Assembly: GCF_041886205.1 (NCBI RefSeq)
Contig: NZ_CP169029.1
DNA length: 64,000 bases
Direction: 5' to 3' (one strand)
Source: Escherichia coli
GTDB taxonomy: Bacteria > Pseudomonadota > Gammaproteobacteria > Enterobacterales > Enterobacteriaceae
The position numbers were made by a program, and so were the translations under genes. This document shows, piece after piece, positions 52,419 through 54,053 of the stretch (position 1 is the first letter of the stretch; every line of letters begins with the position of its first letter). The notes under the pieces are model-generated. The model had not been told where the DNA came from. It was given only the letters and a program-made list of their open reading frames with translations, and searched no databases.

Positions 52419-52886
52419 ATGATTTTTTATCTCATTGACAAAGAAGTTAAGGACCGAGAGATGAGTTTTAATACCACACACGAGAAATCTGAAATCTATC
52501 GTCTGATCCTTAGAGAAAGTGAACTCATTACAGCATGGGTAAAATCTGGAGACACGCCGTCAGCAGTTTACGGAAAACTACGTGATAAAAACCCGGATAT
52601 AATCTTTTCGATAAATGGCTTTTTATATAACCTACGTAACTTTAACTATGCACTATATGAAACAGCCACAAAGAACAAAAGCAAAACAAGGTTAATAATA
52701 CTCAACCATTATGATGATATTGCATCAGCTATCCGTGCTGGTCATACGCTTAAAGGTGTTTACAAACTCGTATGCCCACATATAACATATAACTGTTTTA
52801 TTACACAACTCAGGAAAACCTATCCTGACCTGCATTCTCAGGGTAAAGCGAATCGCAGCAACAAAAACAGAATAATAGCTAACTGA
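52419..52886 (+). CDS. Hypothetical protein in AT-rich region
   Basis: 155-aa ORF, no recognised domain. Confidence 0.3.
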   Translation: MIFYLIDKEVKDREMSFNTTHEKSEIYRLILRESELITAWVKSGDTPSAVYGKLRDKNPDIIFSINGFLYNLRNFNYALYETATKNKSKTRLIILNHYDDIASAIRAGHTLKGVYKLVCPHITYNCFITQLRKTYPDLHSQGKANRSNKNRIIAN

Positions 52887-54053
52887 TGATATATAAAATG
52901 TTTTACACTATATCTTTTATTGTAACTAAAATTACTTTGATCCTACAAAAAGAAAGGTAAGAAGGGGTTTAAAAGATCATCACGAGACAACTGTTCTAGT
53001 TTTTTAAGCCCCCCATTAATTTAAAAAGCAGATACCAAGCATGAATAAGATTATATAAATTTCATTACATACAATTCATTACTGTCCGGACAAATATTGT
53101 TGTTTATAAAATATAACACACCAATTGTAAAGCTGTGAGCTCATGCTACTTTTAACAGAATTTTTAAACAAGAGGGAATGGGAGACCATTAATAATGCAA
53201 GAAACAAAAACCAACCGCAAATCTAACTGTACAAACTGCAATATTCCTGGATGTAAGCAAACCCCATTTTGCAAGTACTGTCGTAGTGTCAAAGACATAT
53301 CCGGAGCTAGACGCTCTTTATATCTCCATGTAGCAATATTCATCATTATTATTGTACTTACTATTATTTCAGTACTTTGACAAGCCTTTTTGCACCAACT
53401 GATGTACACAATCAGATTTCAGCCTGTCCGTAATAATTATATTTGATATTACATTAACGCTCTTTAACTGTAGGACAGCACAGCGTAAATTGTTGAATAG
53501 TTCATTTAAAAAATCATAAGGATAAAAAACCAACACTTAAAACATTGTTCTTTTTCAAGAACACATATTTAAATAAAATAACAAACCGCTACCAACTTTA
53601 AAACATTAAAAAAACTGTGAGAGATTACTCTGAAAAGAGTTCATAGCTTTTTAATAAACCATATAAAGTAAACAATACATATGTTAACCCCCCAGAAAAA
53701 ACGTGACAAGAACATAACACCATAAGCAGATACCATATACACGCACACCACCATAACGAATTGGTCACTGGTTCATGACAAACCGTTCATAATTGCTAAA
53801 AATATTAATACACCATCATATAGACTTTCATGTCTAATGAAAAAATATTTATACTCCAGAATAGCCACAACCTTTATAAAATTCAGCTCATTAGAATATA
53901 AATGCATATGCCAATGAACAGAATACATTCTCATCCTTATTGAGGAACATACTGCCTGAGAGAAAAATCATCACTCAGACTTTGAAATAACATTGTCGAA
54001 TTCATATTATACAAAAGGGGAGTCATTCCCCTTTTTTAGCTTAGGTACTCAGT

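Follow-up and report, generated by a model that had tools for sequence, protein, structure and literature searches.

The AT-rich DNA beside iolB

The window, meaning the whole stretch of 64,000 nucleotides of Escherichia coli DNA that was analyzed (contig NZ_CP169029.1), is the edge of an E. coli myo-inositol (iol) island. An earlier note on this stretch, made from the letters alone, pointed to two open reading frames (ORFs) in about 2.2 kb of very AT-rich DNA next to iolB, and both are in the ORF list as it described them, on the plus strand, one encoding 155 amino acids (aa) at positions 52419 to 52886 and one encoding 61 aa (MQETKTNRKSNCTNCNIPGCKQTPFCKYCRSVKDISGARRSLYLHVAIFIIIIVLTIISVL) at positions 53195 to 53380. 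The composition is also as described; the DNA from the stop of a papX-like MarR-family gene to the stop of iolB (positions 51790 to 54053) is 2264 bp long with a G+C content of 33.7%, compared to 55.5% in iolB, 55 to 66% in the iol genes, and 49.7% in the whole window, and values of 28 to 41% prevail from 50.85 to 54.05 kb. We conclude, with a probability that we put at roughly 0.8, that both ORFs are real genes in a conserved cassette. The AT-rich DNA from the insertion sequence (IS) remnants to iolB is a horizontally acquired accessory cassette of three plus-strand genes, namely, the MarR-family gene and the two genes considered here, and not decaying noncoding DNA.

The long ORF is beyond chance on length alone. 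Among 1000 dinucleotide-preserving shuffles of the 2264 bp, only 0.3% contained an ORF of at least 141 codons and 0.1% one of at least 155 codons. ORFs of at least 61 codons arose in 83% of the shuffles, on average 1.75 of them per shuffle; an ORF of this size is expected by chance, and the 61-aa ORF therefore needed comparative evidence. That evidence comes in part from a diverged cassette at a locus without iol genes (L004), and the cassette exists independently of iol. Similarity between the window and L004 at the DNA level is confined to three blocks, comprising the MarR gene (70% identity), the 141-aa gene within the long ORF together with 100 bp upstream of it (78%), and positions 53217 to 53376 within the 61-aa ORF (74%), while the intergenic DNA cannot be aligned. 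The L004 copy of the 61-aa ORF is open in the same frame and reads MKNGCKYDCTDCNIPGCQRTLFCHYCHGNEDISGARRSLFIHLVVFIILIVLTVITVLSGTD, and both antisense frames over it carry stops. A third, unannotated copy was recovered by a tblastn search of plasmids on the IncF plasmid CP098976.1 and reads MKNDCKYDCTNCGIPVYQRTLFCHYCQGDREAAKAKRSFLLHLVVLVLLIIFAVVIVV. The diverged copies share ∼60% and ∼36% amino acid identity.

Substitution patterns separate the coding frame of the 61-aa ORF from the other two, with dN/dS of 0.18 to 0.23 in frame versus 0.6 to 1.7 in the shifted frames (Fisher P values of 6e-5 to 1e-6), with the limit that synonymous sites are saturated in the third pair, the window versus L026 (pS of 0.78 versus pN of 0.33). 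Nei-Gojobori dN/dS is 0.16 to 0.32 among four paralogues of the 141-aa gene. Judging from these patterns, purifying selection acts on both ORFs, which evolve as protein-coding genes. The earlier note had left each ORF as either a real small gene or a chance ORF, and had named frame conservation and synonymous bias beforehand as the check; both ORFs keep their frame and motifs in diverged homologues with dN/dS well below 1, so the first option holds for both and the second falls away. Its label of a noncoding stretch has to be given up, since the region carries a conserved three-gene cassette.

The length of 155 aa also needs revision. The Prokaryotic Genome Annotation Pipeline places the start at the second ATG (position 52461), which has an AAGGA Shine-Dalgarno sequence 7 nucleotides (nt) before it; this ATG and its Shine-Dalgarno sequence are kept in the diverged L004 homologue and the upstream ATG at 52419 is not. 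The longer version thus overextends the gene by 14 codons, and the likely product, encoded at positions 52461 to 52886 on the plus strand, has 141 aa. A putative promoter and 5' untranslated region on the same strand (positions 52357 to 52460) lies within the 78%-identity block common to the window and L004. The 141-aa protein is already in RefSeq (WP_000009634.1) as a "hypothetical protein" without curated family membership, and 45 of 47 genomes carry the gene intact, at 99% identity or more. The 61-aa gene is unannotated in RefSeq, with no coding sequence at its position in any RefSeq record listed; other annotation pipelines call a 61-aa hypothetical protein on ∼321 contigs. Shine-Dalgarno-like sequences precede its start both in the window (GGGAG) and in L004 (GAGG).

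Properties of the 141-aa and 61-aa proteins

As the earlier note had it, the long ORF has no recognizable domain; no Pfam profile matches it above threshold, which is equally true of the 61-aa ORF, and searches of PHROGs (phage proteins), PADLOC (defense systems), and NCBIfam returned no match for either. The 141-aa protein is basic (pI 9.7), as are all members of its family (pI 8.7 to 9.9), and an AlphaFold2 model built from three sequences only is all-helical, with a mean predicted local distance difference test score (pLDDT) of 84. Its N-terminal half is homologous to its C-terminal half (hhalign probability of 96%, E = 2e-9), so that the protein amounts to a unit of ∼58 aa duplicated in tandem; the unit is marked by a G-x-[ST] turn, a third helix rich in F/Y, and the ending [FY]P[DE]LH. 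The repeats resemble helix-turn-helix (HTH) modules, and the nearest profile is DUF5338 (PF17273), which matches 36 residues of the C-terminal repeat only, at 15.6 bits and E = 0.018, below its gathering threshold of 25.9 bits. The same weak match occurs in 7 of 9 family members, the best of them with E = 0.0019, and HTH_38 or HTH_40 is matched in single members at E of ∼0.04. We rate at even odds the proposal that the protein is a divergent, duplicated three- or four-helix HTH-like module and a DNA-binding regulator; in that case it would act as a small regulator of island genes. The basic pI of the family offers indirect support for DNA binding.

Searches of the model with Foldseek against the PDB and BFVD gave no match at E < 0.1, and we found no paper that mentions the 141-aa protein or DUF5338. 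A PDB profile search returned an LWY-repeat effector from an oomycete (7xvi, E = 0.008), a match that we judged to reflect the periodicity of helical repeats and not homology. A 417-aa protein from a sediment metagenome (P0016, L028:413-1666) consists of six tandem units of the ∼58-aa type; it matches Pfam TraI_middle just above threshold (30 versus 27.6 bits), a score that is summed over the repeats.

The family of the 141-aa protein spans 78 to 29% identity, and the closest homologues found in a word-indexed search have 78% and 63% identity. When 1.84 billion cluster representatives were searched exhaustively with HMMER, only 10 clusters (at 50% identity) were recovered; their named members are almost all E. 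coli "hypothetical proteins," several of them present on hundreds of contigs. The gene of the 78% homologue lies directly 3' of an intact PapX-like MarR gene, with DUF465 and IbrA/IbrB-like genes downstream, and that of the 63% homologue directly 3' of a PerC-family gene (L008:6514-7401); neither locus has iol genes. Other paralogues lie at the terminus of a chaperone-usher fimbrial operon whose last gene is an EAL gene, beside a type III restriction-modification system with a YadA-like adhesin and TacAT, beside a SPATE (serine protease autotransporter of Enterobacteriaceae) gene, and directly 3' of a Hha-family gene in an IncI-like transfer region (L027:6420-7408). The common theme of these loci is AT-rich mobile DNA with small regulators and surface factors. 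The recurrent small-regulator neighbors fit a regulatory role for the family, which they may point to and do not prove. The pairing itself recurs with small regulators of foreign DNA of three types (PapX-like, PerC, and Hha).

The earlier note likened the product of the shorter ORF to small membrane peptides, with a Cys-rich N terminus followed by a single hydrophobic segment, and hydropathy, modeling, and alignment agree on this layout. The protein encoded at positions 53195 to 53380 (plus strand) has a CxxC-x10-CxxC motif (codons 12 to 29, positions 53228 to 53281), a basic linker, and a transmembrane (TM) helix (codons 43 to 61, positions 53321 to 53377). Kept in all three versions are C12-x2-C15-x10-C26-x2-C29, the basic stretch, and the C-terminal hydrophobic helix; a fifth Cys, C20, the middle Cys of "NIPGC," is not conserved. 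The maximum 19-residue Kyte-Doolittle average is 2.85 to 3.53 (2.85 in the window), reached between residues 40/43 and 58/61, and the hydrophobic helix is followed by 0 to 4 residues and preceded by an N-terminal domain of net positive charge. AlphaFold2 places a helix at residues 26 to 60, with pLDDT of 82 to 94 over residues 41 to 61. In prediction the protein therefore has the form of a tail anchor, that is, one hydrophobic helix at the extreme C terminus and a predicted cytoplasmic N-terminal domain.

Sub-threshold profile matches of the plasmid copy suggest what the Cys motif might be, among them DUF2116, a "probable treble clef" (E = 0.0025, 18.2 bits against a cutoff of 26.8, model positions 6 to 56 of 59), and Zn_Ribbon_1 (E = 0.004, 17.3 bits against a cutoff of 25), as well as DZR. 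A tail anchor in the inner membrane and a cytoplasmic four-Cys zinc knuckle are the probable architecture of the 61-aa protein. By the positive-inside rule its N terminus would stay inside, the zinc-ribbon-like knuckle would face the cytoplasm, and the protein would probably serve as a small membrane-bound modulator. Its family is narrow. A profile search of 5.8 billion proteins recovered only near-identical copies, the GTDB species representatives yielded 0 matches when scanned with a degenerate motif, and a metagenome scan gave 8, all of the iol-island type.

Neighboring genes and flanking DNA

The first gene of the cassette is a papX/sfaX/focX-type MarR-family gene at positions 51289 to 51789 on the plus strand (Pfam MarR, E = 3e-11). 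What the earlier note called a MarR remnant is a full-length gene inactivated by a single nonsense mutation, a C-to-A change at position 51452 that turns TCA into TAA (positions 51451 to 51453), here and in E. coli ZYB62, where RefSeq lists a pseudogene. Over its 501 bp, the gene differs by 1 substitution from that of EC15 and by 4 from that of ATCC 8739, and the change that creates the stop is absent from both. It is intact in most strains, including ATCC 8739 and EC15 (which encode a 166-aa protein), TK3046, and ARS-C301. In ATCC 8739, a common laboratory strain, the intact MarR gene is accompanied by the 141-aa gene and the 61-aa ORF (CP043852, about positions 2,110,684 to 2,113,450). Annotated papX/sfaX genes, found in >1300 E. 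coli genomes, match it at 80 to 81% nt identity over 99% of its length. The "X" proteins PapX and FocX, MarR-like and 17 kDa in size, have their genes at the ends of fimbrial operons and repress flhDC and motility (PMC6246914). In the window, no fimbrial genes lie near the MarR gene, and IS debris lies upstream of it.

The region around the two ORFs matches the ZYB62 chromosome at 100% identity and ∼45 other complete E. coli genomes at 99% or more, and the cassette adjoins iolB in ∼47 of 5426 complete E. coli genomes. A published survey found the E. coli myo-inositol island in <2% of E. coli genomes (PMC9430895). The order of features in the RefSeq record of ZYB62 (offset from the window, 45099) is uhpC, IS3, IS66 debris, an integrase-core fragment, the MarR pseudogene, the "hypothetical protein," ∼1.17 kb without annotation, and then, on the minus strand, iolB, iolE, and a fused iolC kinase/aldolase gene. 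The integrase-core fragment (positions 50815 to 51036, plus strand) is of the IS3 family and forms the left bound of the AT-rich cassette; it is a RefSeq pseudogene in the identical ZYB62 record, and a 43-aa ORF within it (positions 50905 to 51036) matches rve_3. On the other side, iolB (positions 54054 to 54875, minus strand), the last gene of the iol operon according to the RefSeq annotation of the identical record and the ORF list, is convergent with the cassette. A consensus scan alone places a terminator-like element, a G+C-rich hairpin with a T-run, at positions 54017 to 54030 (plus strand), between the cassette and the convergent stop of iolB; this hairpin is the exception among terminator-like matches that were otherwise unconvincing. 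In Rfam, the sole match over positions 50800 to 54300 was a sub-threshold, spurious Histone3 stem-loop (positions 53542 to 53586), the source of which is a perfect 7-bp hairpin (TGTTCTT-TTTC-AAGAACA, positions 53546 to 53563) with no T-run after it.

Several further observations concern the flanking and intergenic DNA. Between uhpC and the cassette (positions 48456 to 50659) lie an intact IS3 and the remains of an IS66 element (tnpA, tnpB, and tnpC in fragments), and papX in strain CFT073 is likewise followed by an IS66/IS3 mosaic. The 567 bp that separate the MarR gene from the 141-aa gene (positions 51790 to 52356) correspond to nothing in the diverged cassette, in which the two genes are 180 bp apart. 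A piece of ∼90 bp of this spacer (about positions 51919 to 52008) finds 77% matches in as many as 16 places per genome, plasmids included, which suggests a small dispersed repeat. The DNA downstream of the 61-aa ORF (positions 53381 to 54053) shows 1 to 3% divergence among iol islands, compared to at most 1% for the 141-aa gene, and its minus strand carries hydrophobic ORFs of 47 aa (positions 53625 to 53768) and 53 aa (positions 53773 to 53934), for which no diverged homologue exists for comparison. Some E. coli strains (ARS-C301, CE0011b, and others) have two iol-island copies at different chromosomal sites (L010- and L001-type loci). In these the MarR/141-aa/61-aa cassette is present in each copy; the island, including the cassette, therefore moves as a unit.

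Function, competing explanations, and known systems

Several findings weigh against the reading of the cassette set out above. The MarR partner is a pseudogene in this window, promoter-like sites occur at chance level for AT-rich DNA, and no CxxC/TM ORF resembling the 61-aa gene adjoins the other paralogues of the 141-aa gene, so the two are not obligate partners. The plasmid copy of the 61-aa gene stands alone between IS elements, without a 141-aa gene. Only three variants of the 61-aa family are known; its Cys region is not folded confidently by AlphaFold2 (pLDDT of ∼55), and the zinc-ribbon matches are weak and confined to 1 of the 3 versions, those of the window and L004 having none. In the sub-lineage of TK3046, RM13745, and R1, the start codon of the 61-aa gene has changed from ATG to ATA (positions 53195 to 53197) with no alternative canonical start, and there are extra nonsynonymous changes (R39K in 3 of 3, P18L in 2 of 3). 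In LH50-c the ORF is interrupted by an IS3 insertion, and one metagenome copy has a nonsense change (CAA to TAA). The 61-aa gene is dispensable or decaying in places. TK3046, RM13745, R1, and others of their sub-lineage also have a 54-bp deletion (positions 53387 to 53440) just 3' of the ORF.

Joint action of the three products, for example, through membrane sequestration of a regulator, strikes us as quite doubtful. A more specific proposal, that a PapX-type MarR protein, the 141-aa protein, and the 61-aa protein form a three-component switch at the ends of E. coli adhesin and metabolic islands, is unlikely. If such a switch existed, the small membrane protein would tether or release its soluble DNA-binding partner or partners, and the control of island expression or motility would be coupled to a membrane signal or to a redox or zinc signal.

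The strongest competing account is that the cassette is a functionless passenger, the tail of an adhesin island that was captured with IS fragments at the iol edge and is slowly decaying. Genes of the papX type normally end fimbrial operons (PMC6246914) and there is none here, IS3 and IS66 debris lies on the left of the cassette, a nonsense mutation interrupts the MarR gene of this strain, and the 61-aa gene has lost its start, taken up an IS, or gained a stop in some lineages. The high conservation and intactness of the 141-aa gene in all but two of 47 genomes argues otherwise, as do the intact MarR gene of most strains and the 61-aa ORF, which is intact in most lineages and differs among them by only 1 nonsynonymous and 3 synonymous changes. 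We regard this account as possible but on balance somewhat unlikely, and it is compatible with the genes being real.

The 61-aa protein could instead be a toxin similar to those of type I toxin-antitoxin systems, a membrane-damaging peptide under the control of an antisense RNA; the peptide would then stabilize the island and not act as a modulator. It is small and has one strongly hydrophobic helix, its setting is mobile and IS-flanked, including that on the IncF plasmid, and its inactivating mutations recur, as those of toxic genes often do. Its order of parts is reversed, however, with a polar Cys-motif domain of 40 residues first and the TM helix at the extreme C terminus, opposite to the domain order of toxins of the Hok, Ldr, and TisB type. 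Neither HOK_GEF nor any other toxin family matches it, no Rfam antitoxin or small RNA (sRNA) family is present in the region, and no conserved flank outside the coding sequence is available to encode a regulatory RNA. This explanation is improbable.

Still less probable is that the 141-aa protein regulates the iol genes specifically, as an E. coli counterpart of ReiD, the island-encoded activator of iolE/iolG1 in Salmonella. In complete E. coli genomes the window allele of the 141-aa gene always adjoins iolB, and the Salmonella iol island has an AT-rich orphan regulator gene and sRNAs near iolB (PMC6288124). ReiD is, however, an AraC-family protein (PMC9430895), and Pfam and NCBIfam find no AraC domain in the 141-aa protein; the closest relatives (78% and 63% identity) come from islands that lack iol genes, and the gene converges on the 3' end of the iol operon and is not near an iol promoter. 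Homology between the 141-aa ORF and ReiD (STM4423) was discarded, with no Salmonella protein among the named members of the ∼10 clusters from the exhaustive hidden Markov model search. Finally, it is extremely improbable that the two ORFs are open by chance alone in AT-rich intergenic DNA that is decaying; the shuffles do yield ORFs of at least 61 codons in most cases, a nonconserved 81-aa antisense ORF overlaps the 61-aa ORF in the window, and neither ORF has a family match, but ORFs of 141 to 155 codons arise in at most 0.3% of shuffles, both frames are open in homologues at 70 to 78% nt identity with dN/dS of 0.16 to 0.32 compared to ∼1 in shifted frames, and the likeness to the diverged cassette is limited to the ORFs.

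With both ORFs taken as real genes of a conserved cassette, the stretch beside iolB holds a gene missed by RefSeq, that of a conserved 61-aa predicted membrane protein, and the 141-aa protein founds a small family of duplicated HTH-like proteins that is restricted to Escherichia. Going by the homologues that the searches recovered, both proteins define small families that are essentially restricted to Escherichia and lack curated family membership. In kind they appear familiar, one among small island-encoded regulators and the other among small Cys-motif membrane proteins. If the 141-aa family regulates island genes, its members would be new players in the circuits of adhesion-motility control and xenogeneic silencing in E. 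coli, both pathogenic and commensal. The importance is modest, given the narrow distribution and the signs of decay in some lineages.

Among known systems, small membrane proteins of the Hok, Ldr, TisB, AcrZ, and MgtS type share with the 61-aa protein a length below 65 aa, a single TM helix, a tendency to be missed by annotation, and a place on accessory DNA; unlike them, the 61-aa protein has a large polar Cys-motif domain before its C-terminal anchor, and the Rfam and conserved-flank checks identified no antisense RNA of the sort that accompanies a type I toxin, just as no toxin family was matched. Zn_Ribbon_1 (PF13240), DZR (PF12773), and DUF2116 (PF09889) have the same CxxC-x10-(F)CxxC spacing followed by a single TM helix, but the scores of the 61-aa family all lie below gathering and its Cys region is not confidently modeled. 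The 141-aa family has weak profile matches to DUF5338 and to the short tri-helical HTH domains HTH_38 and HTH_40, that to DUF5338 falling below the gathering threshold. Like the Salmonella ReiD/RssR region, the cassette is AT-rich, acquired, putatively regulatory DNA beside iolB in an inositol island (PMC6288124, PMC10783015), but there is no Rfam match above threshold or sequence homology between them, and the E. coli cassette also occurs without iol. A further parallel is with PapX, SfaX, FocX, and VatX, the 17-kDa MarR-like "X" regulators of E. coli adhesin and toxin islands. The 141-aa and 61-aa proteins are not MarR proteins, the X-type gene of the window is a pseudogene away from any fimbrial operon, and papX in CFT073 and the MarR gene in GN03139 are followed by IS elements with no 141-aa- or 61-aa-like gene. 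The upstream gene of the cassette nevertheless has the MarR domain and ∼81% nt identity to papX/sfaX, and, like vatX and papX, the cassette and the 141-aa paralogues lie at the ends of adhesin or autotransporter loci.

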